Source of the DNA: an uncultured cyanobacterium
GTDB taxonomy: Bacteria; Cyanobacteriota; Cyanobacteriia; Cyanobacteriales; Microcystaceae
Length of the DNA: 64,000 bases
Reading direction: 5' to 3'
Assembly: GCA_963807635.1 (NCBI GenBank)
Contig: CAWEDJ010000067.1
Span: 1 to 64,000 of the forward strand
Shown here: one piece after another, positions 7,653 to 42,563 of the stretch
How the letters are laid out: every line of letters begins with the position of its first letter
Numbering within the stretch: the stretch's first letter is position 1
Notes under the pieces: generated by a model
What the model saw: the letters and a program-made list of their open reading frames with translations, nothing else
Databases searched by the model: none
What the model was told of the DNA's origin: nothing
Made by a program: the position numbers and the translations under genes

Positions 7653-9221
7653 ATGACTCAGCGCATTCTCTACGTCCGTCTTCCCTGCAACCCGATTTTT
7701 CCCATTGGCGTTGTCTATTTAGCTGATCATGTCCATAAACTTTTACCCGATATTGAACAAAAAATCTTTGATTTAGGCACAGTTCCGCCCCTAGACTTTA
7801 AAAAAGCCCTGGATCAATGTATTGATAACTTTAAACCTACTTTACTGGTGTTTTCATGGCGAGATATTCAAATCTATGCCCCCGTCGGTGGTCGTGGTGG
7901 TAATCCCCTCCAGAATGCCTTTGAATTTTATTATGCAAAAAATCCTTTGATTAAACTCCGAGGCGCATTAGGGGGATTGAAGGTGACAACCTCCTATTAC
8001 ACGGAGTTATGGCAAAATATTGGCTTAATTAAGCGGGGACTCAAACGGGCTAGACAATATAATTCTGATGCTCGTGTGGTCATCGGTGGTGGTGCGGTCA
8101 GTGTTTTTTATGAACAATTGAAAACTCAACTGCCCCAGGGAACCATTGTTTCGGTGGGAGAGGGTGAAACCCTATTGGAAAAATTATTGCAAGGTAAGGA
8201 ATTTCGAGATGAACGTTGTTATGTGGTTGGAGAAAGTGATCCCCGCGATCGCCTAATCCATGAAGCCCCTACCCCCTTAGAGAAATCTGCCTGTAATTAC
8301 GACTATATCAGCAAGATTTGGTCAGAATTTGACTATTATTTACTGGAAAATGATTTTTATATCGGAGTCCAAACCAAGCGCGGCTGTCCCCACAACTGTT
8401 GTTACTGCATTTATACCGTCGTCGAAGGTAAACAAGTCCGTATTAATCCCGCCGAGGAAGTGGTCGCAGAAATTCGTCAACTCTATGACCGAGGAATTCG
8501 TAATTTTTGGTTTACCGATGCCCAATTTATCCCTGCTAAAAAATTCATTGATGATGCTATTGAATTATTAGAAAAAATTGTTGAATCTGGCATGACCGAT
8601 ATTCACTGGGCGGCCTATATTCGGGCCGATAATTTGACCCCCAAACTTTGTGATTTGATGGTGAAAACGGGGATGAATTATTTTGAAATCGGCATTACCA
8701 GTGGTTCCCAGGAATTAATTCGGAAAATGCGGATGGGCTACAATTTACGCAACGTTTTACAAAATTGTCGAGACCTCAAAGCGGCAGGTTTTAATGATGT
8801 GGTTTCGGTCAATTATTCCTTTAATGTGATTGATGAAACCCTAGAAACCATTCGCCAAACGATCGCCTACCATCGAGAATTAGAAGCAATTTTTGGAGTC
8901 GAGAAGGTCGAACCCGCCATTTTCTTTATTGGTCTGCAACCCCATACCCTATTAGAAGAATATGCTTTTAAACAGAAAATTTTAAAGCCTGGCTATGATC
9001 CCATGAGTATTATGCCCTGGACAGCTAAAAAACTGCTCTGGAATCCCGAACCCTTTGGTTCTTTCTTTGGAGAAGTTTGTTTACAAGCTTGGAATCAGAA
9101 TCCTAATGATTTTGGGCGAGAAGTGATGAAAATTTTAGAAGAAAGATTGGGCTGCGCCGATCTCGAAGAAGCCTTAACTGCTCCTGTTGGCGATCGCGTC
9201 ATTGATCTCGTGGCTGTTTAA
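7653..9221 (+). CDS. B12-binding radical SAM protein (PSII high-light acclimation, Slr0320-like)
   Basis: RGCPHNCCYC motif; N-terminal RLPCNPIFPIG. Confidence 0.85.
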   Translation: MTQRILYVRLPCNPIFPIGVVYLADHVHKLLPDIEQKIFDLGTVPPLDFKKALDQCIDNFKPTLLVFSWRDIQIYAPVGGRGGNPLQNAFEFYYAKNPLIKLRGALGGLKVTTSYYTELWQNIGLIKRGLKRARQYNSDARVVIGGGAVSVFYEQLKTQLPQGTIVSVGEGETLLEKLLQGKEFRDERCYVVGESDPRDRLIHEAPTPLEKSACNYDYISKIWSEFDYYLLENDFYIGVQTKRGCPHNCCYCIYTVVEGKQVRINPAEEVVAEIRQLYDRGIRNFWFTDAQFIPAKKFIDDAIELLEKIVESGMTDIHWAAYIRADNLTPKLCDLMVKTGMNYFEIGITSGSQELIRKMRMGYNLRNVLQNCRDLKAAGFNDVVSVNYSFNVIDETLETIRQTIAYHRELEAIFGVEKVEPAIFFIGLQPHTLLEEYAFKQKILKPGYDPMSIMPWTAKKLLWNPEPFGSFFGEVCLQAWNQNPNDFGREVMKILEERLGCADLEEALTAPVGDRVIDLVAV

Positions 9222-9240
9222 TCACCTTGGAAAATGAACG

Positions 9241-9717
9241 ATGAAATGGGAAGAAGTTTGCAACAATCAAGAATTACAAAATTTACCCTTCAAAATTGAA
9301 CTCAATAAATGGGGACAAATTGTAATGAGTCCAGTAAAGATTAAACATTCTTTTTATCAAGGAAGAATTCAACGTTTATTGGAATCTTTATTGCAAACAG
9401 GAGAAGTGATGCCCGAATGCGCGATCAATACATCGGACGGCGTTAAAGTTGCTGATGTTGTTTGGTGTTCGGACGAAAGATTTGATCAAATTCAAGATGA
9501 AGTATCGGCTTCTATTGCACCAGAAATCTGTATAGAAGTTAAATCTATCGGTAATACTTTAGAGGAAATGGAATTCAAGAAAAAATTATATTTTGAAGCC
9601 CAAGCAATGGAAGTCTGGATCTGTAATGAGCAAGGTGAGATAACATTCTATAATGAGCAAAATGAATTAACCCAATCTTTGCTAGTTCCGTATTTTCCTC
9701 AGCAAATTAAACGTTAA
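9241..9717 (+). CDS. Uma2 family (DUF820) endonuclease-like protein
   Basis: IELNKWGQIVMSP, VADVVW, APEICIEV and EVWIC motifs. Confidence 0.88.
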   Translation: MKWEEVCNNQELQNLPFKIELNKWGQIVMSPVKIKHSFYQGRIQRLLESLLQTGEVMPECAINTSDGVKVADVVWCSDERFDQIQDEVSASIAPEICIEVKSIGNTLEEMEFKKKLYFEAQAMEVWICNEQGEITFYNEQNELTQSLLVPYFPQQIKR

Positions 9718-27359: not shown

Positions 27360-28733
27360 TCATACTTTCAAGATTTCCTTCGCGACACGCATACCAGACA
27401 AATATGCGCCGTGAGCAGTCCCAAAATAGCTTTCCTCAGAGGCTTCCCCTGCAAAAAATATAGACCCTTTCAGAGGGGCGGCAAGTTCCTGGCGCATCCT
27501 TGGCAGTGAGCCAACAGGATTATAGGAATACGAACCCAGGGAAAACGGATCAGTTGCCCAACGAGTAATTTGGTAATCAGTTGGGTCGGGGATACCTACT
27601 CCATAGATTTTTCTTAAAACTTCCATCGCACTGGCAACGATTTGTGTATCTGACCATGCTTCAATCTCTCTCCCTCTGTCGGCGGCATTAAATCCTAGCA
27701 GTATGGGCATATTGGCTACATGATTGAAACTTACCCATTCTGTCCATTCACCAGTTTTTTCCGAAACGTACTCCAACCAATCAACATTAACCGACCAAAA
27801 GACTTCAGGAAATCGAAGATAACATTTGTTCAAGACTCCCATACCCAGGTTAGCGATCGCATTCTGTTTATTTCGTGGTAATTCAGGAATGAAACGTACA
27901 CTCTTAGACTGCAAAACCCCAAGCGGCAGGGTAACTACAACGTGGTCAGCTATAAACTCGGCTTTTTGGGTAATCACCTTAATAGGAGACTGATCCCATT
28001 GAATTTCTTTTACCACCTGACCCAGTTCAATGTTTAACCCTTGTGCTAAAAATTCTGGGATAACTCTAAATCCTTGAACGAATAGAGCGTCATCGCCAGA
28101 AAAGGTTTTATCACTGTCATACCATTGTACGGAAAGGCTTTGAGTACTTCCTGAATACTCCTGTTCGATTTCAGCACTCAAAATAAAGTTGATGAAACGA
28201 TATGCTTCCGAGGATTTGTCCAACTGAGGGATCAGAGGTTGAATCGCCTGTCGAATCGAAACATCAATCTCCTCGTTTTGTGTCTGCTTCAAAATCCTAA
28301 ATACTTTCTTCCTCAAATTCTCCATCTGGACTTCCTCTGCTTTGGAGAGTGGCTGGCCTGACGTGTTATAGGTGATTGTCCTGTCGTAACTCGTGATAAG
28401 ACGTTTGGCTTTGATTTGTTCCGCCAAAGTGGTCAAGGGGTTGCCCTGAGTTCCATGTATCCAGGTTGCCCCCAAATCCAAAGGCATATCAGTCCACTTA
28501 AGACTCGTCCAAATTCGACCACCGATACGCTCGCGAGCTTCAATAACAACAACTTCGTGTCCTTGTCTGTGTAATTCTCGTGCGGCGGCAAGGCCTGCTA
28601 GTCCAGCACCAACTACCACGATACGCTTCCTGTTAGATGCCTCTGCATATTCTTGCGAATTGTCACCACAAGCATGATTGACAATTCCCATTAACGTCAA
28701 GCCGAATAGGGTTAAAAAATCTCGCCTATACAT
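27360..28733 (-). CDS. Flavin monoamine/polyamine oxidase family protein with Tat/lipoprotein-like signal
   Basis: MYRRDFL...NHAC; GAGLAG, GGRI, LGATWIHG, GSYSY, FAGEA and GTAHGA motifs. Confidence 0.88.
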   Translation of the reverse strand: MYRRDFLTLFGLTLMGIVNHACGDNSQEYAEASNRKRIVVVGAGLAGLAAARELHRQGHEVVVIEARERIGGRIWTSLKWTDMPLDLGATWIHGTQGNPLTTLAEQIKAKRLITSYDRTITYNTSGQPLSKAEEVQMENLRKKVFRILKQTQNEEIDVSIRQAIQPLIPQLDKSSEAYRFINFILSAEIEQEYSGSTQSLSVQWYDSDKTFSGDDALFVQGFRVIPEFLAQGLNIELGQVVKEIQWDQSPIKVITQKAEFIADHVVVTLPLGVLQSKSVRFIPELPRNKQNAIANLGMGVLNKCYLRFPEVFWSVNVDWLEYVSEKTGEWTEWVSFNHVANMPILLGFNAADRGREIEAWSDTQIVASAMEVLRKIYGVGIPDPTDYQITRWATDPFSLGSYSYNPVGSLPRMRQELAAPLKGSIFFAGEASEESYFGTAHGAYLSGMRVAKEILKV

Positions 28734-28899
28734 GATTGCACCTCGACCTCGCAGACTACTGCCCAATGATGGAATATAGTCACACTTTACCTATATTTTG
28801 TTACAAGCAGGTTGCTATTTTTTAGAGTTTTGATTGAAATTCTCTATGACTCAAATATTTTGAAACGGTGGGACGATTTATGATCACCGATTAGAAATA

Positions 28900-31171: not shown

Positions 31172-32380
31172 ATGTTCAAGCAACGGCGGGTTTTAGTCGG
31201 TATAGGGGGAGGGATTGCCGCCTATAAAGTTTGTGCAATCATTTCCCAATTATTCCAATCAGGAGCCGAAGTTCGGGTTATTCTGACCGAATCTGCCCAG
31301 AAATTTATTACTCCCCTAACCGTCTCTACCCTCAGCCGCCATCCCGCCTATACCGATCAAAACTTTTGGCAACCCACTCATTCTCGTCCGCTACATATTG
31401 AATTAGGGGAATGGGCAGATGTTTTTTTGATCGCGCCCCTGACTGCTCAAACTTTAGGGAAATTAGCCTATGGATTGGCGGATAATTTATTAACGAATAC
31501 GGTGCTGGCTTCCCGTTGCCCCATTTTGCTGGCTCCTGCGATGAATACGGAGATGTGGGAACAGGTTTCTGTGCAACGGAATTGGCAGTTAATTGCTCAA
31601 GATCCCCGTTATGTTTCTGTTGGGACTAGTGTGGGTTTACTTGCTTGCGATCGCGTGGGTAGAGGCAGAATGGCGGAACCTGAAGTGATTTTGAGTACCC
31701 TAGAATCCTTATTGCTAACCCAAGGAAAACAAGATTTAGTCGGCAAAAAACTCCTCATCAGTGCGGGCGGAACGAGGGAATATCTCGATCCTGTGAGATA
31801 TATCGGCAATCCTTCCACAGGAAAAATGGGATTAGCCCTCACCCAAGCGGCACTAGATCGGGGTGCGTCGGTGTTCTTGGTTCATGCTCCTTTAACGGAA
31901 AAAATAACGCATTCTGAACGCTTACAACTTATTTCTATTATTAACGCCGAGCAAATGGAAAAAGCGTTGATTAATCATTTATCCGAAGTTGATTGGATCA
32001 TTATGTGCGCGGCCGTTGCTGATGTTAAACCTGCCCATTATGTTAGTTATAAACTCCCGAAAAAAGAGTTACCTTCCCATTTAGAATTACAATCCGTTCC
32101 CGATATTGTGGCAAACTTAAGTGAATTAAAACAACCCCATCAATTGCTGATTGGTTTTGCTGCCCAAACGGGGGATATTATTCCACCTGCTCTCGATAAG
32201 TTACACCGAAAAAATCTAGATTTTATTGTGGCAAACCCGATTGATCAACCGAATTCAGGTTTTGGGACAGATACTAATCAGGCAGTTATTCTGAATCAAC
32301 AAGGTCAAACAAAAGCGATCGCGTCTTGCAGTAAGTTGGCATTAGCTCATCATCTTTATGATTTTATTTTGCAGAGTTAA
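31172..32380 (+). CDS. coaBC: Phosphopantothenoylcysteine decarboxylase/ligase
   Basis: [27 protein letters not shown] and AAVAD motifs. Confidence 0.95.
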
Positions 32381-32527
32381 AGTTAAGTTGGCGATCGCTG
32401 GATTTCAGCTAATAAGGCTCATTTTGACTCGTTGATTAAGTGCGGTAGCAATTTTTTGTAGCATTATTAGGGGATTGTCTTGATAGTCAGCGTCCTCTAG
32501 ATTTTCAATAACGGATTGTTCTACAAA

Positions 32528-32875
32528 CCACGTTCCGCAGGTTCCAAAGAACTTTTAAACAATTTTAAAATCCTTACGGGGCAAGAGCTTTGCAAATTAC
32601 TGTCTTGTTTACGAGCTTGTACTAAAACGAAAAAAAGGCTTGTCGTTATACTGAATTAAGAAAGCATCTTTTTACTGATGACCAATATTTTCCTTTTGCT
32701 TGATGAGAAAATTAACAGTAGAGCAAAATATTTTTACCCCAAAAGCCTTCAAAGCTTTGTCAAATAAGGAATATAGCTTTTTCAAGAGTCTTACCTAATC
32801 AAGGAATTAATCTACGGGGCGAAAAAGCAGTACAAATGTATTATCTCGTTCCTTGAGTCAACCTGCGGAATGCGG
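32528..32875. mobile_element. Putative MITE (non-autonomous IS derivative), 348 bp
   Basis: 16-bp terminal inverted repeats, 14/16 match: CCACGTTCCGCAGGTT vs rc CCGCATTCCGCAGGTT; no internal ORF; no clear TSD. Confidence 0.6.
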
Positions 32876-32901
32876 TCTCTAACGGCGATCGCGGAGTAAT
32901 T

Positions 32902-33909
32902 TTAGTAATTTTTCCTTCTGGACGATAGATGATGTATATTTTGTGATCGCTGAACGGTTTCTGAGGGTAATTCGCCGAAACGTTTTTGATAACTCTGACT
33001 ACATCTTCCCAAATGTCCAAACTGATATTTGATGATCAAATCCGTAATTCCTAAGGGTGGCATTACCTGTTTTAATTCTTGATGTAAGGCATCCAATCGT
33101 GCTTGTTTCAAAAATTGGAGCGGTGAACAGTCGTAATATTTTGCAAAAGAGCGTTGTAAAGAACGGCCACTTACCCCGATCGCCGAAGCAATATCTCCTA
33201 AACTAATCGGTTTTTGTAAATTTGCCATCATGAATTCCTGAGCCATTCTTACCGTGCGATCGCTAACTATTCCCTCATTTTTTTGAAGAAAAGCAGAATA
33301 ATTATGGGGATGATATTGCAGTAATCCCGTCACTAAAGTTTGTTCTAATTGGGGTAAAAATAGAGAGTTACAAGCCGTTGATTGCCAAGCAAATAGAATA
33401 AGTTCCTTAAGACTGTGACCAAAGACAGTGGTTAGATCCACTTCGGGCTGAAAAGTAATGAATGAATTGATGGATTTCCCTGATAAATTAGCTAATTCTT
33501 GATGTAATTTTTGGTAGGGAATACAGATAGAAATTCCCTGACCTCTCGAACTAATCTGACCCGTTAAGTCCTGTTGCGGACTAAATAAATGAGCTGTTGT
33601 GATGGAAGAAAATATTGGCTCAGACTGATTAATTCTTTCCTGAATAATTCCTTCTAGAGGAAGATAAAAAACGTATAAATCATCTGGCTGAAAACGGATT
33701 AATTTCTGCGCCCCTTGCCATTGTAAATAGACCATTGCTGATTGATGAAAGTTGGCATAATAATAACGAGTTAAAAAGGGAGAATTCGGTTCTAAAAATT
33801 CACTTTTGCAAGGGCCGATTAACTGCGTTAACATTACCTCCGCCTCTTCGTAATTATCACTTTCAAGCAGGGGAGTTCTATCTAGGGGGAACAATAATTG
33901 AGGATTCAT
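32902..33909 (-). CDS. AraC/XylS-family transcriptional regulator, divergent from the NHase-like operon
   Basis: C-terminal double HTH: ISLGDIA..GVSGRSLQ..SPLQFLK..RL..HLGR.SQSY..RFGELPSET. Confidence 0.93.
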   Translation of the reverse strand: MNPQLLFPLDRTPLLESDNYEEAEVMLTQLIGPCKSEFLEPNSPFLTRYYYANFHQSAMVYLQWQGAQKLIRFQPDDLYVFYLPLEGIIQERINQSEPIFSSITTAHLFSPQQDLTGQISSRGQGISICIPYQKLHQELANLSGKSINSFITFQPEVDLTTVFGHSLKELILFAWQSTACNSLFLPQLEQTLVTGLLQYHPHNYSAFLQKNEGIVSDRTVRMAQEFMMANLQKPISLGDIASAIGVSGRSLQRSFAKYYDCSPLQFLKQARLDALHQELKQVMPPLGITDLIIKYQFGHLGRCSQSYQKRFGELPSETVQRSQNIHHLSSRRKNY

Positions 33910-34122
33910 TTAAAAACAGGAGCGAACGAAAAAGGAAGCAAAATTAAAAACTGATACAAAAGTTATATCGCTTTTTGTCCAAAAAACGACAACTTATCTC
34001 TAAAGTCGTCGCAAATTGGATAGCTTGCAACCAATAAACCCTATAGAGTGTTGGTTATGGGGTTTGCAGTGTACTCAAGAATTTGCCTCTAAACCCAATC
34101 TTCAACAAAAGGATAGGACATC

Positions 34123-34467
34123 ATGAAAAATTTAATCCCAGGAACGATCGCGGCTTTTGTATTAGCCTCTGTCAGTTTTGGTCTCGTCACTCAGCCTGCC
34201 TCTGCGGAAACCGTCAAGGGGATGGCGCAGAAGGGAGGGGCAAATTGCAAAATGAAAGCGGTAGATCAATTCAGTGTCCCGATGTCGGATGTGAGTGTCT
34301 CCTTGGGAGCAACCCTACAGGAGTCCATCGATAAGGGTGACATCACTTTAAATGACATCAAAAAGGATGGTTTAAGTTTTAATTGGGTGGTCACACGGGA
34401 CGGCAAAAAAATGGAAGGTTATTGTAATACCAACGGAAAAGGCAAGGTTACTGAATTTAGACAGTAA
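34123..34467 (+). CDS. Small secreted protein with two cysteines
   Basis: AGGA RBS; Sec signal ending QPASA; ANCKMKA...EGYCNT. Confidence 0.8.
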   Translation: MKNLIPGTIAAFVLASVSFGLVTQPASAETVKGMAQKGGANCKMKAVDQFSVPMSDVSVSLGATLQESIDKGDITLNDIKKDGLSFNWVVTRDGKKMEGYCNTNGKGKVTEFRQ

Positions 34468-34562
34468 TATTCTGCTTTTTTAAAGCCAAAATTATAGTCT
34501 GGGAAGAGGATTAAAATTAAAACTCGTCCCATTTTTTATTAAATTGTGTGAGGAGCGAATTA

Positions 34563-36409
34563 ATGAAAAGTTTACTGATCAAAACCTTAAAAATATTTCC
34601 CCTAATCCTGGGCGGTTTTGGACTCATATTACCCGCCGCGATGTCGCAGACACACTTCGCGATCGCTGATGAATTATCGTCCCCAACGCCTGAAGTTCTA
34701 ACGGAAAAAGATCCTACCAACATAATGTTATCAACCCCTGAAGTTGATCCCTCCGCCAATCAACTTTTGCAACAAATTCAACGGCTAAGACAACCCAAAG
34801 GTTTTCAAGTTACGAATAATGATTTATCCCAGGTTACAGATGTAAACCAATTGCGGGATGTGGAGCCGACTGCTTGGTGTACGAAGCTCTCAAAAGTTTG
34901 GTGGAACGCTATGGCTGTATTGTGGGCTATCCCGATCGCACCTTTAGGGGAAATCGAGCGTTATCTCGTTGGGAATTTGCGGCGGGCTTAAATGCCTGTA
35001 TGAATACAATGGAGCGACTGCTTCAGGAAAATGTAGCAGTGTTACGGGAAGATTTAGATAAATTAAAACGATTAGCTCAGGATTTTGAAGTAGAATTAGC
35101 CGCAATGGGAGTAAGGGTAGATAACCTCGAAAGTCGGGTTTCCTATCTCGAAGATCATCAATTTTCTACGACGACTAAATTATTTGGAGTCGCGACCATG
35201 TATGTGGCAGGGGTGGCAGGAAATAGAACTGCAACGAGTAATATTATTACGGATCAAGGGAGAAAAACGCTCCGTCCTTCTGAACAGATACAACGTCAGG
35301 CAACCCTTCAATATTCCAGTTTATTATCCTTAACGACAAGTTTTAGTGGAACTGATAGTTTATCGGTTGATTTGTGGACAAGTAATTTAACCCCCTTTAG
35401 TTCTTCCCTCGCAGGTTTTACGACTAATGTGACGGGAAGTTATATGAGTCGTTTGTCCTTTGATGCACCGCCTTATAATAATAGTTTAGCGATCGCAGAT
35501 TTGATTTACAAATTCCGTCCCTTTGAGAATCTGTCTGTATTTATTGATGCCGTTGGTGGAGAAGTTTCAGGAGAATTATTAACATCAACTCAACCTTTTG
35601 CCATCTTTGCACCCTATACGGTTTCTATTAGCCGTTTCGGTCGTTTTGACCCCATTTATTATCAAACCTTAGCCCGCCCAGGGGTTGCCGCTAACTACAA
35701 ATTTAGTGATCAATTATCTTTAGGAGCAGGGTTCTATGGAGACTTTGATAATGGAAATCCCAAAACAGGTTTTTTCAACGGCGGTAATGCGGCGATCGCC
35801 CAGTTAGCCTATTTTCCCACCGACACCCTGGGCATGACCCTGGTTTATGTCCGTTCCTATAATCCTGCGGGGCCAGGGGTTGCCGTATCAGGTCAAACGG
35901 GCAGTTTGTACGCCGATCAACCCTTTGGAACGAGTTTCCTTCCCCCTGGGGCTTTTGGCAATCCCAATCCTGCTCCTGCTTCCATTGCCACTTCTGCTGA
36001 TCACACGACCTTTGGTTTTGGTTGGCGAGCATTGCCGGAATTAGCCTTTACAGGAGATATCGGTTTTGCTTTTGCCCACGCAGAACAAGCGAACCCCGCT
36101 TTTAATGTCAATGCTGGGGATAGTGCTACCATTTTTGAATGGAATTTTGGTCTATCTTTAATTGATTTATTTGGGCAAGGAAATGTCGGTTCTTTGATGA
36201 TTGGAAATCCCTATCGTGTGATTAGTCAAAGTAGTAGTGGTTTACGACCTGAAGGCGATACGACTTGGCATATTGAAGCGGCCTATAAATACAATCTCAA
36301 CAATAATATTTCGGTGCAACCAGGTTTTTTAGTGGTTATTCATCCTGAAAATAATAACAGTAATCCTCCTATTTGGATTTGGCAATTGAAAACCTCCTAT
36401 TTCTTTTAG
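34563..36409 (+). CDS. SLH-domain/OprB-type cyanobacterial outer-membrane porin (frameshift near 34876)
   Basis: SQVTDVNQLRDVEPTAW/YEALKSLVERYGCIVGYPDRTFRGNRALSRWEFAAGLNAC, QFSTTTKL, terminal Phe. Confidence 0.92.
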
Positions 36410-36490
36410 CAGTAGTTCTTAAATTTGAGGACTTAGAGACCAAGCCCCTAGCCAATTTCATTTTTACCTATTTTCTATCAACTATTCACT

Positions 36491-37476
36491 ATGAGCCAAA
36501 ACAATCATCCTTCCGAACCCCAAAATACAGAAGAAAAAACCAATGCTTCTCGTCGTAAATTTCTGCAAAATGTCGGATTAGCGGGATTGTCCGCAGGAGC
36601 CGCAACGGTAGCAGGTCAAGGGCTTTTAGAAGATGTCAGTGCTGAAACCCCCGTTAAAGATGTCGTCACTCCCGACGAATCGCGGGCCATGCACGGAGGT
36701 TCCCCTGTTGCAGACACGACCTTTAAAACTCCCGAAGGTAGTACAGAAGTCGTGCTTCCCCCGTTAAAAGAACGAGTGCTGGCCATTAAACAATTACTGA
36801 TTGAGAAAAAAATTGTCAGCGAAGAAGGAGTCCAAGGCTTTGTCAACTATTACGAAAAAGTGGTTGGCCCTCACTTCGGAGCCGCCGTTGTTGCCCATGC
36901 CTGGAAAAATCCTGACTGGAAAGCCAAACTATTAGCTCCACCAGCAGATAAACCTTTTCAAGCGGCCATTTTGATTCGAGATTTTTTATTTAACACGGTT
37001 AACCCTGATACGGGAAAACCCTATCTCAGTGATCAAATTACCTTTGGTCTAACGATTGGCCCGAAGGCGAATATATCCGTATTTTTGCCAACGGAGAACA
37101 GCAAGAAAATGGCAAAACTATCTTTGTTCATAATCTTGTTACTTGTACGGTTTGTTCCTGTTATCCTCAAGCCCTTTTAGGAACTCAGCCTATGTGGTAC
37201 AAATCCCAACAATACCGCGCTCGCAGTGTGTCCGATCCCTTTGGCGTATTGGTAGAATTTGCAGAAGATGCCCATAAAGGTAAAGCGGATCATTTGAAAC
37301 AATTTAAAGATTACACTGCTAAAATTGATGAGTTACGGGTTTGGGATTCTAACTCAGAAGTTCGTTTTTTTGTCATTCCAGAAATGCCGAAAGCCTGGGC
37401 AAATTTAAGTGAAAATGAATTGCGAAAACGGGTAACACGCAATGCCATGTTAGGAGCAGAAATTCTTTACAGTTAA
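36491..37476 (+). CDS. nthA: Nitrile hydratase alpha-like subunit with Tat signal (~328 aa after correcting a 1-nt deletion near 37060)
   Basis: GPHFGAAVVAHAWKNPDWK; frame-1 HNLVTCTVCSCYPQALLGTQPMWYKSQQYRAR; RVWDSNSEVRF; N-terminal SRRKFLQ. Confidence 0.9.
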
Positions 37477-37508
37477 CTTTTTGATTCACCATTTAAGGAG
37501 CAACAATT

Positions 37509-38331
37509 ATGGAAGGGCCACACTACAACGCAGGCTGGACGGGCTACGGCAAAATTCCCTTTAAAGATCAACCCGACAATCAAGCCTGGTTAGAAGAATG
37601 GGAAGGCCAACTGGGCGCGATGTTTGCGACGTTGAGTACCGTTTTTGAAAAGGGTTTAAAACCAGGTCAACCTGTTCCTTTTTGGGGCTTAGATGCGGCT
37701 CGTTGGGGTCGGGAAACCATGAATCCCCGCGATTACATGAATCGTAACTACGATGCTTTATGGTTGGAAACGTTATGTCTTTTAATCACAATGTATGGCG
37801 ATAAATTAGGCGTTTCTGTTGCCGAAATGGAAGCCCGAAAAATTACGACAGCTCCTGCCCAAAAACGTGCTAAAGCTATTCGAGATCAAGCTTTCAAAAA
37901 AGCTGTACCCTGGGGTGGGTCGTCCTGATGCAAAAGGATTATATCAATCGGAACAATATGATCCTGCGAAGGTGGGTTCTATTGAGGCTATTGGGGCTAA
38001 AGCTAAATTTAAAGTGGGCGATCGCGTGCAGTGTATTAATCAACTTTCCACAGGACATACCAGGGAATATCCCTATTTTCGTGGCAAAGTTGGGACAATT
38101 GTTGCGTACTACGGTTTAGCAGAAGAAAAACGCAACGAGAAAGGACAAATTGAATTTCAAGGAGTTTACTATGCTCCCTATCCTGATATTGCTTGTCGCG
38201 GTTTACAAAAGTTCTATACGCCTTTGTATAGCGTGCGCTTTGAAGGAAAAGATCTTTGGGGAGAAGAGTTTGTTGATCAGCGATCGGTTATCTATGCGGA
38301 TGTTTTTGAACCTTATGTGAAATTAGTCTAA
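37509..38331 (+). CDS. nthB: Nitrile hydratase beta-like subunit (~273 aa after removing one A from the run at 37896-37901)
   Basis: AAGGAG RBS; MEGPH..GYGKIP..EWE, LDAARWGRETMNPRDY..W, FKVGDRV..GHTREYPYFRGKVG and LYSVRF..DLWG..FEPY motifs. Confidence 0.88.
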
Positions 38332-38345
38332 TTAATGCAATCTCT

Positions 38346-38368
38346 GGGCGTAAGCCTTACGCCCCTAC
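38346..38368 (-). repeat. GTAG-type REP palindrome inside the NHase operon
   Basis: GGGCGTAAG-C-CTTACGCCC plus CTAC; identical to 5714-5736. Confidence 0.8.
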
Positions 38369-38399
38369 ACAATCAACTAATCAAGCTTTTTAAAAAATT

Positions 38400-38899
38400 A
38401 TGACAATTCTCGATCCGATTCTGGAAGAATTAACCCAAGAACCGATTCCCCCTTTATTGAAAGATGATGGCAACCCATTTTTCGAGATTCCTGGGAAGCT
38501 GAAGCTTTTGCGATCGGCAATTTGTTAATTAAACAAGGCTTTCTTTCCTGTTTAGAATGGGTGAATATTTTCAGTGAAGAAATTAAAAAAGCTCAAGTTC
38601 AGGGTGATCCCGATCGCGGCGATACCTACTATAGTCACTGGTTAAATGCCCTAGAAAGAGTATGTATCGAACGGGGTTTAACGGACTGGGAAACTTATCA
38701 GAAACAACTACAACTCTGGCATCAAGTGGTTTTAAATACGCCTCATGGTGTTCCCCTGGCGATCGAAAATGCCTATTTAGAAACCGACGATCACCACCCT
38801 CATCATGATCATTCCCATCATCACGGGCATCATCATCACCATCATTCAGACAAATTACCTGAAAATATGCTCAAACCTGTGGCAGTCTTCAAGCGGTAA
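38400..38899 (+). CDS. Nitrile hydratase accessory/activator protein with His-rich tail (~166 aa; frameshift near 38475)
   Basis: Corrected reading DGNPIFRDSWEAEAFA, EW, YYSHWLNALE, NTPHGVP; tail HHPHHDHSHHHGHHHHHH. Confidence 0.87.
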
Positions 38900-39026
38900 A
38901 AATGATGGATTTCCTATAGTCACGGTTATTTTTGTTACAAAATCTCGTTGAATTGATTGATTATAATCACGAACGTGAGGTAACTCTCTCAAGTTTTTCC
39001 TTGACTAAACTTTTTTGAGCTTTTTT

Positions 39027-40245: not shown

Positions 40246-40857
40246 GAATTTGTTGAAAAGTTTTTAAATTATTGACTTGAAAAGTAACGCAACCGACACG
40301 TAAAGTTTTCCACCCGTGACCCGTCCATTGAATGACTGTTGAGGGTTTCCCGATCGCCTGAACGTCCTCTAAATTATCACAATTCAGGGTTGCTACGTCA
40401 GGAAAAACCTGAGCGATCGCTGACATTTGCATTAGGGGAGGTTGTCCCGACAGATTTGCGCTAGTTGTTGCTAACGGGCCAGTTTGAGCCAGGATGTCTA
40501 GGGCGATCGCAGAATCAGGAATGCGAATACCAATGGTTCCAGAATTCAGGGGATTCATCTCAGCAGGAACTTTCTCAGAAGCAGGTAAAACCAAGGTTAA
40601 TTGCCCTGGCCAATAATCTTCGGCGATCGCTTGCCAAATCCCTCTTTCCTCCTGTGTCCCCAGAACATAATCCCAAATTTCATTCACCGTTGCCGCCATT
40701 AAAATTAACGGTTTATCGGTCGCTCTTTGTTTGAGGTCAAAAATCAAATCGGCCTTTTGGGGTAAAACAGCTAAACCAGGCACCGTATCCGTCGGGAAGC
40801 TCACCACTTCCCCGCGATCGCCTTTTGAATTAATTCAGCTTGAGTAACTAAGGGCAT
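40238..40857 (-). CDS. tsaC: L-threonylcarbamoyladenylate synthase (frameshift near 40812)
   Basis: FPTDTVPG, KQR..DKPL, WPGQLT, GIRIP and TSANLSG motifs. Confidence 0.9.
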
Positions 40858-40875
40858 GGGAGAAATCTTTTAAAT

Positions 40876-41764
40876 TCAATAGGCCACAACAAAACGTTCG
40901 ATACCTGCTAAATCCTTTAAAAGTTGAATACCTTGATATTGTCCCTGATTTTCTAATAATTCGGCAACCCCAGGGAGCCTGACCTGCCATGATTTCCACT
41001 AGCCACAATCCCCCCGCAACCAGATAATCAGGAGCCGTTTCTACCAAATGACGAATGGCGACTAAACCATTTTCTCCGCCATCCAGGGCTAAATGGGGTT
41101 CATGCTGAGTGACTTCGGGTTGCAGGCCCGCAATCATTGAACTAGGGATATAGGGCGGATTAGAAATCATTCCCTGAATCTGTCCTTGGAAATGGGCCAA
41201 CGGTGTCCACCAAGAGCCAGAAAAAAACTCGATGCGATCGCCTAACCCATAACTTTGGGCATTTTCCTGGGCGATCGCCAAAGCGTCTAAACTGGTATCC
41301 ACCGCAAAAATCCTTGCTTCGGGAAAACAACGGGCTAATCCCAAGGCGATCGCGCCGCTTCCTGTGCCTAAATCCACCCAATTTCCCTGATTAAGCTGGG
41401 GATTAATCACTTTCTCCTGAGAGAGCCAATCAATGATTAATTCGGTTTCAGGACGGGGAATCAAAACGGCAGGGGATACTTTCAAAACAAAATCACGCCA
41501 AGGAGAAAGACCCGCCAGATATTGAATGGGACAGTTTTCCGTGAGACGGGTTTGCCATCGCTCGTTTAGAACTGACCAGGATTGGGGAATAGGAATCTGC
41601 GATCGCGACTCAAAAGAACCCAGACGGAGGGAAAGTTTATCCACATCCGTCCAAATTTGCAAGAGCCAGTCCACCTCATCAGGGGAGATTTCCTGCGCGA
41701 TCGCCGCTTGTCTTGCTTGTTTGCGCCAGACAGCCAATTCTTGACCAGAAACCCAAAAGGACAC
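40876..41764 (-). CDS. prmC: Release factor glutamine methyltransferase (frameshift near 40972)
   Basis: LIPRPETE, DLGTGSG, NPPY and ALDGG motifs. Confidence 0.95.
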
Positions 41765-41781
41765 TTTCGTCTTGCCAATAA

Positions 41782-42563
41782 TTACTTAGGGGGTTTGTTA
41801 TTGGCAGGAGCCGCAGGTTTGGCATTACTCGCCCCAGGAGCTTGGTTAGACTGTCCCTTAATCGCGGTTTGGATAAATTTTAAGGATTCTTCCGTGGGAA
41901 CTAAACGAATACTCTTGAGCATTTTATCGTCACTGCTTTGTAAAGTACCCATCACATTTTCCAGGGCAATGACATCAATTTTGATGGTAGAAGCGAGTTC
42001 GGGCTTATCCTTTTTAAAGCGATCCACCATTTCTTGAATTTGCTTTTCTTCAAAGAAAAAGGGAATAATTTGTTCATTATTTTGCTGGATAGTCAAATAG
42101 CCCTGTTCTTTACCACCACGAGCCACATACAAGGGAACGCCCCCCTGATATTTTTGACCGCCGCCGTGAGTAACTTAGTCGCAATCGCCACTTCCGTCGG
42201 AACGGGAACATAGGCAAAATTGAGGGCATCAGTTTTCCCCGCATTCGCGATCGCCAACTTGTAAACTTCCCCCAAAGAAACAGGCTGAACCGTTACCTTA
42301 CTTGCAATATCAGGTTTATCTTTCTTTAATTGTTGAAAAAACTTTTGTGCTTCCTGTTGACTCACAAAAATTCCCGTCACCTTTTTATTGTTATCAATGG
42401 CAACCAGAGGCGCACCCTGGGCATCGGCAATGGTAAAAACGGGAATTCCTTGCAAAAGCTTGACAACTTCTTCCGTCGGCAGAGCCAACACCTTTAAAGT
42501 TTGTCCTACTAAAGTCGTTAATACCGCTCCACCGACCAGACCCCAACGGATAAATGAATTCAT
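41782..42563 (-). CDS. tic22: Tic22-like periplasmic chaperone (frameshift near 42150)
   Basis: L.GIPVFTIAD..GAPL, VSLGEVY, GVPLY, IPFFF and IRLVP motifs. Confidence 0.85.

Follow-up and report, generated by a model that had tools for sequence, protein, structure and literature searches.

To our knowledge, characterised nitrile hydratases (NHases) are treated as intracellular enzymes, and their natural substrates are mostly unknown. The nearest described relatives of the enzyme considered here are the cobalt-type (Co-type) NHases of Pseudonocardia thermophila (1IRE), Bacillus smithii (1V29), Bacillus sp. RAPc8 (2DPP) and Pseudomonas putida (3QXE), and the thiocyanate hydrolase (SCNase) of Thiobacillus thioparus (2DD4), which has the same cobalt centre and fold and works without an amidase. 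Here we describe a six-gene cluster in a 64,000-nucleotide stretch (the window) of contig CAWEDJ010000067.1, from an uncultured cyanobacterium of the Microcystaceae (source genome G000). An earlier note had proposed it to be an inducible envelope module, in which a dedicated porin admits a nitrile-type substrate to a periplasmic NHase. The six genes, their places and their order were all confirmed by the sequence, the open reading frames (ORFs) and Pfam, including the NHase models that the note had asked for (Table 1). We judge, with a probability of about 0.65, that the cluster is a functional operon for a predicted extracytoplasmic cobalt NHase of a distinct subfamily.

With the Co-type NHases the enzyme shares the fold (template modelling (TM) score about 0.77, 32–36% identity), the CxxCSC ligands with Thr and Tyr, the catalytic beta Arg/Tyr/Arg and a P14K-type accessory protein. 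It differs in that alpha adds a twin-arginine translocation (Tat) signal, about 35 more N-terminal residues and two internal inserts, and in the pocket, where Gln stands at alpha Trp116, beta Phe51 is mostly Ala, Glu50 is lost and Ile55 is replaced by Arg. Alpha and beta also score under the equivalog cut-offs, and the enzyme is without a linked amidase and has a linked porin. Compared with SCNase, it has two subunits instead of three, lacks gamma Arg136 and beta Arg90 and forms a separate clade. Ordinary cyanobacterial NHases (plasmid pAQ4 of Picosynechococcus PCC 7002, and genomes G047 and G052) share the Co-type motif, the accessory protein and a HupE/UreJ neighbour, but their alpha is about 205 aa long, without a signal and with YPW, the gene order is beta-alpha, a CobW-like GTPase is a neighbour and there is no porin. 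On sequence features, the enzyme is a Co-type-like member of the NHase/SCNase superfamily that departs from the characterised families in equivalog score, pocket and predicted location.

Two further systems bear on the cluster. The Tat hitchhiker complexes HybOC and PaoABC of E. coli (PMC4273604) carry the signal on one subunit, together with a metal-loaded partner without signal; these enzymes are unrelated to NHases, and it is we who infer hitchhiking here. The porin has the SLH plus OprB architecture and C-terminal Phe of the SomA/B-type porins (Slr1908 and kin; PMC9705863), yet it belongs to a subfamily of its own, which shares no more than 43% identity with the other porins listed and is found solely beside the enzyme. 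No description of an exported NHase or of this gene order was found in the literature searched, a coverage outside which most subscription papers lie; within it, the impression of the earlier note that the architecture is undescribed stands.

Results

A search with the intact alpha orthologue returned 191 proteins, and the figures that follow refer to the best 120 of the 191. Their length is mostly 300–350 aa. A twin-arginine leader is present in 111, the remaining 9 being N-truncated, and both arginines are invariant across 51 aligned homologues. The same pattern occurs in 2 of 58 ordinary alphas, both spurious-looking. The intact orthologue passes TIGR01409 (17.3 bits, cut-off 16.7), and alpha displays the features of a Tat substrate, namely S/T-RR-x-F-L, an h-region, a cleavage site and conservation in homologues; TatC was found by a genome search. 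In 7 homologues, in or resembling an actinobacterial branch and one of them named Nanopelagicales, a lipobox occurs in addition to the Tat signal. CxxCSC is retained in 118 of the 120, and Gln follows YP in 115 of 118 (CPQ included).

The homologues constitute a compact group. A profile search gave 8 representatives with at least 379 bits and then a drop, with fragments between. In the alpha tree of 151 rows, 52 Tat/YPQ sequences make up one side of a branch of length 0.76 with a Shimodaira-Hasegawa-like approximate likelihood ratio (SH-aLRT) support of 95, apart from the ordinary cyanobacterial YPW enzymes and the YPR (SCNase-like) group. This tree is the product of a fast search, was rooted at the midpoint and has SH-aLRT as its sole support measure; the partial or broken L059, L095 and L113 were left out, and its groups are labelled by motif, the rows containing no enzyme of proven activity as reference for the Fe-type, SCNase or toyocamycin groups. 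Tat-like leaders are also found on three alphas outside the clade (P0139, P0152, P0165). Since two of these nest among ordinary enzymes, export seems from the sequences to have been gained more than once among NHase alphas.

Named hosts, all metagenome-assembled genomes, include the cyanobacteria Snowella, Merismopediaceae, Microcystis, Leptolyngbyaceae and Cyanobium, and also Methylocystis, Methylococcaceae, Thiodictyon/Chromatiaceae, Verrucomicrobia and Actinomycetota, some of which are organisms without thylakoids. One sequence binned as Nitrosopumilus on a 2.8-kb contig (L048) was not counted as an archaeal host. The sequencing runs compared are from freshwater or runoff. The clade is rare, occurring in 6 of 61 relatives and in 2 of 401 genomes of a phylum sample, the source genome included, and a plasmid collection held no close member (all <60% identity). 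The module had been placed in cyanobacteria by the earlier note; the core unit of Tat-alpha, beta and accessory protein spans four bacterial phyla, while the porin is a cyanobacterial addition.

The modelled intact alpha orthologue (328 aa) has the NHase alpha fold (E 2e-12, TM 0.77 by target), which together with CxxCSC places it in the NHase/SCNase superfamily. The same holds for beta through two arginines and a tyrosine: Arg65, Tyr81 and Arg185, invariant in 20 of 20, align to Arg52, Tyr68 and Arg157 of 1IRE_B (residue numbers counted from alignments). In Co-type NHases the first Cys is followed by Thr and the third by Tyr, as in the CTVCSCY of alpha. The intact accessory orthologue passes the Co-type model TIGR03889 (70.4 bits, cut-off 46). 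Activators of NHases are of the P14K/NhlE type, as in Co-type enzymes, or are COG0523 GTPases (PMC7193024). An Fe-type enzyme, marked by CSLCSC and a COG0523 GTPase activator, was considered and rejected: Ser follows the first Cys in 1 of the 120 homologues, and a COG0523 GTPase is not recurrent among the neighbours. A pyrrolopyrimidine cluster, the setting of the three-subunit toyocamycin NHase, was not seen around the loci, the neighbour clusters being judged by eye.

The pocket is altered at two positions that separate NHase from SCNase. After YP, where the clade has Gln, PDB titles give Trp116 for P. thermophila NHase and Arg136 for SCNase; the titles of 3VYG (R136W) and 3VYH (W116R) fit a role of these residues in selectivity. 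Gamma Arg136 and beta Arg90 reportedly set the selectivity of SCNase (Yamanaka et al. 2013). At the beta site occupied by Phe in NHase and by Arg90 in SCNase, 16 of 20 sequences have Ala and none has Arg (0/20), and a new Arg68 is invariant (20/20). The aromatic pocket of Co-type enzymes (alpha Trp116, beta Phe51) is lacking, and the Tat signal departs from their signal-free, cytoplasmic form. With Gln in alpha, mostly Ala in beta and the new Arg68, the pocket is probably roomier and more polar than that of NHase, and without the anion site of SCNase. Thiocyanate, a candidate substrate of the earlier note, is disfavoured because neither pocket arginine is present.

Locus counts refer to 75 loci, five genome_contigs duplicates and repeat cuts being left out here and in the porin tree. 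Cobalt-transporter genes of three unrelated families occur at 23 of them: HupE/UreJ (12), CbtA (6) and NiCoT (5). Cobalt transport by HupE has been proven in Synechocystis, and NiCoTs encoded near NHase genes are regarded as carriers of cobalt (PMC7689651). A cobalamin riboswitch was absent from the 12 loci searched. The absence of an adjacent amidase or cobalt transporter, remarked in the earlier note, holds for the source genome, where HupE/UreJ has no match and the amidase-family matches lie on other contigs, none linked to the cluster. For cobalt transporters it does not extend to the homologues. A search for aldoxime dehydratase had no match anywhere, control genomes included, and is hence uninformative.

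The porin is present in 35 of 38 cyanobacterial loci, and in the three without it the sequence ahead of the alpha core is shorter than 400 bp. None of 37 non-cyanobacterial loci has the porin, and 25 of these have room for it. Among the 61 relatives, a close orthologue (67–93% identity) is confined to the six enzyme carriers. All 27 linked porins group together (SH-aLRT 100), and their clade shows the same division as the alpha tree, with a picocyanobacterial branch and a Microcystaceae/Leptolyngbya branch. Since the loci are partly redundant and related, the linkage shows co-inheritance and not many independent pairings. The nearest other porins stand in mixed contexts and give no hint of cargo.

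A single-base indel sets each of the porin, alpha, beta and accessory genes of the window apart from all the relatives compared. As a control, 27 genes of relatives were mapped onto the source genome, and 7 were frameshifted, with 8 shifts in 24.9 kb; the shifted genes include some that we take to be Trp-tRNA-synthetase-like and isopentenyl-diphosphate (IPP)-isomerase-like. In addition, urtA and one amidase-family gene of this genome are split. At the control rate, 1.8 shifts would be expected in the 5.5 kb of the cluster, which has 4 (P(4 or more) = 0.10). In five relatives (G003, G004, G014, G028 and G012) alpha, beta and accessory are intact in the same order with different flanks. Since 7 of 27 control genes are shifted and the cluster is intact in relatives, the four frameshifts are very probably assembly errors. 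The alternative, that the operon is decaying in the source genome through four real frameshifts and functional in relatives, draws on the excess over expectation. It is improbable on further grounds: no nonsense changes occur in the aligned segments, the ratio of nonsynonymous to synonymous substitution (dN/dS) is far below 1 in all six genes (0.06–0.34, compared with G004), and contigs from three lake or runoff DNA runs have the relatives' state at the indel sites, all four in X4, these runs being of related strains with a best share of 0.28. The decaying operon that the earlier note had considered is not borne out.

Ordinary genes split by single-base indels are also seen at 40835-42563 of the window and elsewhere in the source genome, about 1 per 3 kb of coding sequence, so other findings from this genome should allow for indels.

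An AraC gene of one type accompanies 26 of 75 clade loci in three phyla, Verrucomicrobia and Thiodictyon included. Its top NCBIfam match is AndR, under the cut-off. The divergent intergenic region contains two conserved boxes, which also occur in L016, and the second lies upstream of a TAGAGT/TAGACT-like -10 element. Of 3 Verrucomicrobia loci, 2 have a single similar box ahead of alpha. We infer from these sequences that the boxes are putative regulator sites. Scans for sigma-70 promoters (8 vs 14.8 in shuffles) and terminators (9 vs 7.5) gave no more than shuffled sequence. The single RNA run compared gave almost no coverage.

Discussion

The following mechanism is proposed. The divergent AraC would probably sense the substrate or product and activate one transcript from the two boxes. 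Alpha, beta and the His-rich activator are in all likelihood assembled in the cytoplasm, where cobalt would be inserted and the cysteines oxidised; family knowledge and the linked cobalt transporters suggest this step. With the signal observed on alpha, it is just as likely that the folded alpha-beta complex would be exported by Tat, with beta hitchhiking, a route with established precedent (PMC4273604). The enzyme would end in the periplasm, or be tethered as a lipoprotein in some Actinobacteria. In cyanobacteria, where the outer membrane is tight to organic solutes, the linked porin would, by a narrow preference, admit the substrate. The enzyme would hydrate a polar or bulky R-CN to the amide. 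Neighbour clustering of the 75 loci, judged by eye and with many contigs short, gave no recurring amidase or solute transporter, and without such a linked gene the product would have to use general uptake. Of the proposal of an inducible envelope module with a dedicated porin, the predicted export, the Co-type NHase family and the linked porin are retained, and inducibility is graded as probable only.

Several observations weigh against this reading. Alpha (154.7, cut-off 249.85) and beta (113.3, cut-off 152.2) fall below the NCBIfam equivalogs TIGR01323 and TIGR03888, and the reaction may therefore be shifted from nitrile hydration. The AraC, the small protein and the porin are each missing from many loci, and the redundancy and relatedness of the loci mean that their counts overstate independence. 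No NtcA-type site was found in 32001-39000, which is odd for nitrogen scavenging. Concerning the use of the product, ureC was not found in the source genome (93.7% complete) and a formamidase is present in just 1 of 5 genomes.

Alternatively, the enzyme is exported but the porin serves as the outer-membrane half of cobalt supply, with a small substrate that diffuses in unaided. This also counts against the mechanism above, since HupE/UreJ is the gene that separates porin from alpha in L029, L031 and L161, which favours cobalt as cargo. The cobalt transporters at 23 of the loci point the same way, and non-cyanobacterial loci have cobalt transporters instead of the porin. The intact porin orthologue matches NF033921, an NCBIfam family named 'iron uptake porin', although this is a broad subfamily model. 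An iron-selective porin is known in Synechocystis (PMC9705863); the same source describes a cyanobacterial outer membrane that excludes organic solutes and whose general porins pass inorganic ones, and in Anabaena no porin could be tied to cobalt uptake. Such selectivity favours the substrate as cargo. With the riboswitch also lacking, a cobalt porin is unlikely. A Tat signal could also direct the cyanobacterial enzyme to the thylakoid lumen for detoxification of nitriles near the photosystems, since Tat of cyanobacteria serves both membranes and the sequence cannot tell them apart. Nevertheless, the same signal occurs in hosts free of thylakoids, with lipobox forms, and the invariable link is to an outer-membrane porin, so that this destination has very little probability.

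Action on thiocyanate (or cyanate) in the manner of SCNase, with ammonia released in the periplasm, would need no amidase and would explain a porin, which an anion requires; the invariant beta Arg68 might even stand in for the SCNase arginines. The pocket is otherwise unfavourable, as the Arg136 position is Gln and the Arg90 position is Ala, Phe, Leu or Tyr. Moreover, the enzyme has two subunits with beta unsplit, lies far from the YPR group and scores 98 against a cut-off of 291 with TIGR03887. Thiocyanate hydrolysis is accordingly very doubtful.

For the exported NHase that we favour, chances are about even that the substrate is some other polar organic nitrile than an N-cyano compound. The single best guess, though a weak one, is an N-cyano (cyanamide-type) compound, which would be turned into a urea-type product for Urt and urease. 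It is kept in this position because relatives have genes for urea uptake and urease, some of which also occur in the source genome; urtA and ureA have matches in the latter and in 4 of 4 relatives. Cyanobacterial conversion of N-cyano insecticides is reported (PMC13243292), and the exported clade may be a candidate for it.

The conserved export signal, remodelled pocket, own AraC sensor and own porin offer three independent handles on a natural nitrile, to be sought in lakes, bloom-forming genera included. They point to a natural nitrile processed at the cell surface, and may reveal which solute a cyanobacterial porin carries. Whole-cell biocatalysis may also profit from an NHase scaffold with native export, as predicted here. 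A bolder, doubtful version is that of a cross-phylum freshwater NHase-fold subfamily with its own extracytoplasmic reaction on a widespread, unrecognised natural cyano compound, such as an N-cyano compound converted to a urea-type source of nitrogen, and a porin in cyanobacteria specific for that organic solute. If true, one of the few cyanobacterial porins with an assigned solute would be gained, and a step so far missing from the nitrogen cycle of lakes would come to light.

Features and Variation of the Cluster

Table 1. Positions in the window of the genes and sequence elements of the cluster.
Feature	Position	Strand	Remarks
AraC-family regulator (AraC_binding_2 + HTH_18)	32902..33909	-	divergent, intact; PF12833, PF00165, PF14525 above cut-off
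Conserved box 1, TGTCC-N6-CGACA, candidate regulator site	33976..33991	+	5/5 aligned intergenic regions
Conserved box 2, GTCG-N6-GGATA, candidate regulator site	34008..34022	+	31 bp past box 1
Secreted two-Cys protein, 114 aa, Sec-type leader	34123..34467	+	helix plus sheet
SLH/OprB (SomA/B-type) porin	34548..36409	+	PF04966 + PF00395; one base missing near 34880
NHase-family alpha with Tat signal	36491..37476	+	PF02979 on both pieces; base missing near 37060
Twin-arginine motif SRRKFL	36548..36565	+	then hydrophobic stretch, VSA-ET cleavage-like site
Metal-binding motif CTVCSC, then YPQ	37144..37170	+	sequence
NHase-family beta, without signal peptide	37509..38331	+	PF21006, PF02211; one extra base near 37908
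Co-type NHase accessory/activator protein, His-rich tail	38400..38899	+	one base missing near 38471

The small secreted two-Cys protein is outside the core unit. It occurs in 5 of 61 relatives, all enzyme carriers, and beside the enzyme in two gammaproteobacterial loci (Methylococcaceae, Thiodictyon), and has 154 database homologues. No Pfam or NCBIfam family and only unnamed clusters in Atlas were found for it; PF13983 (YsaB-like) has no match in the window protein and an E of 0.025, under the cut-off, at the G012 locus. Its model has a predicted local distance difference test (pLDDT) value of 80.5 and no Foldseek match at E<=0.001, the best VIA-align Z being 7.6 (a designed cystatin fold), with 5.3 for a PepSY-like fold. 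A complex prediction with alpha and beta scored 0.00, which is not evidence either way.

The history of the module can be read in part from its composition. The sites of the highly iterated palindrome HIP1 at about 34659, 35489, 35792 and 38018, taken earlier as a sign of long residence in cyanobacteria, exist, with a fifth at 33256. In the 6.0 kb, where 5 sites were observed, the genome rate would predict 7 (P=0.29) and dinucleotide content 0.04, and the GC contents match (41.8% vs 40.9%). Together these show amelioration in this lineage only. Picocyanobacterial copies have a GC of 53–58% within flanks of 68–71%. Such low-GC copies, the patchy distribution and the changing flanks indicate a mobile module. 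The module, or at least its start, is present twice in G028 (L019 and L020) and in G003 (L016 and L120). In several Microcystaceae copies (L019:2622-3035, L020:1889-2302, L153:2312-2740, L154) a gene is inserted between alpha and beta; it is presumably PIN-domain-like and may stabilise the mobile module.

Loci in other hosts vary further. An XRE-type helix-turn-helix regulator takes the place of AraC in Methylocystis and some gammaproteobacterial loci (L037:3791-4306, L038, L190-L192). Chromatiaceae loci L051:8873-11527 and L179:7843-10524 each contain a pair of beta genes; the pair in L051 is separated by a PEP-CTERM-like gene, and the C-terminal extension of its first beta is one that we take to be dockerin-like. 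PEP-CTERM surface proteins stand beside the enzyme in Methylococcaceae (L046:4112-4921 and 8706-9359, L044, L047, L049, L189, L021:3518-5137). In Verrucomicrobia (L041:3159-4396, L042, L043, L180-L183) AraC is followed by an EF-hand protein that looks secreted and by a second, unnamed secreted protein, and beta has a C-terminal extension.

Outside the clade, cyanobacterial three-subunit SCNase-like clusters with the YPR motif were observed at L024:7754-9081 (G022) and at L112:2299-3552, the latter beside asparagine synthase. In haloarchaea (L071-L086) alpha ORFs of about 380–390 aa have a long C-terminal extension and are possibly fused to another subunit. The neighbours of the cluster in the window are coaBC and a GNAT gene. 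At 27360-28766 (- strand), 4 kb from the cluster, a gene which we assume to encode a flavin amine-oxidase-like protein has a Tat-lipoprotein-like leader (RRDFL...HAC), an arrangement seen at this locus and not at the others.

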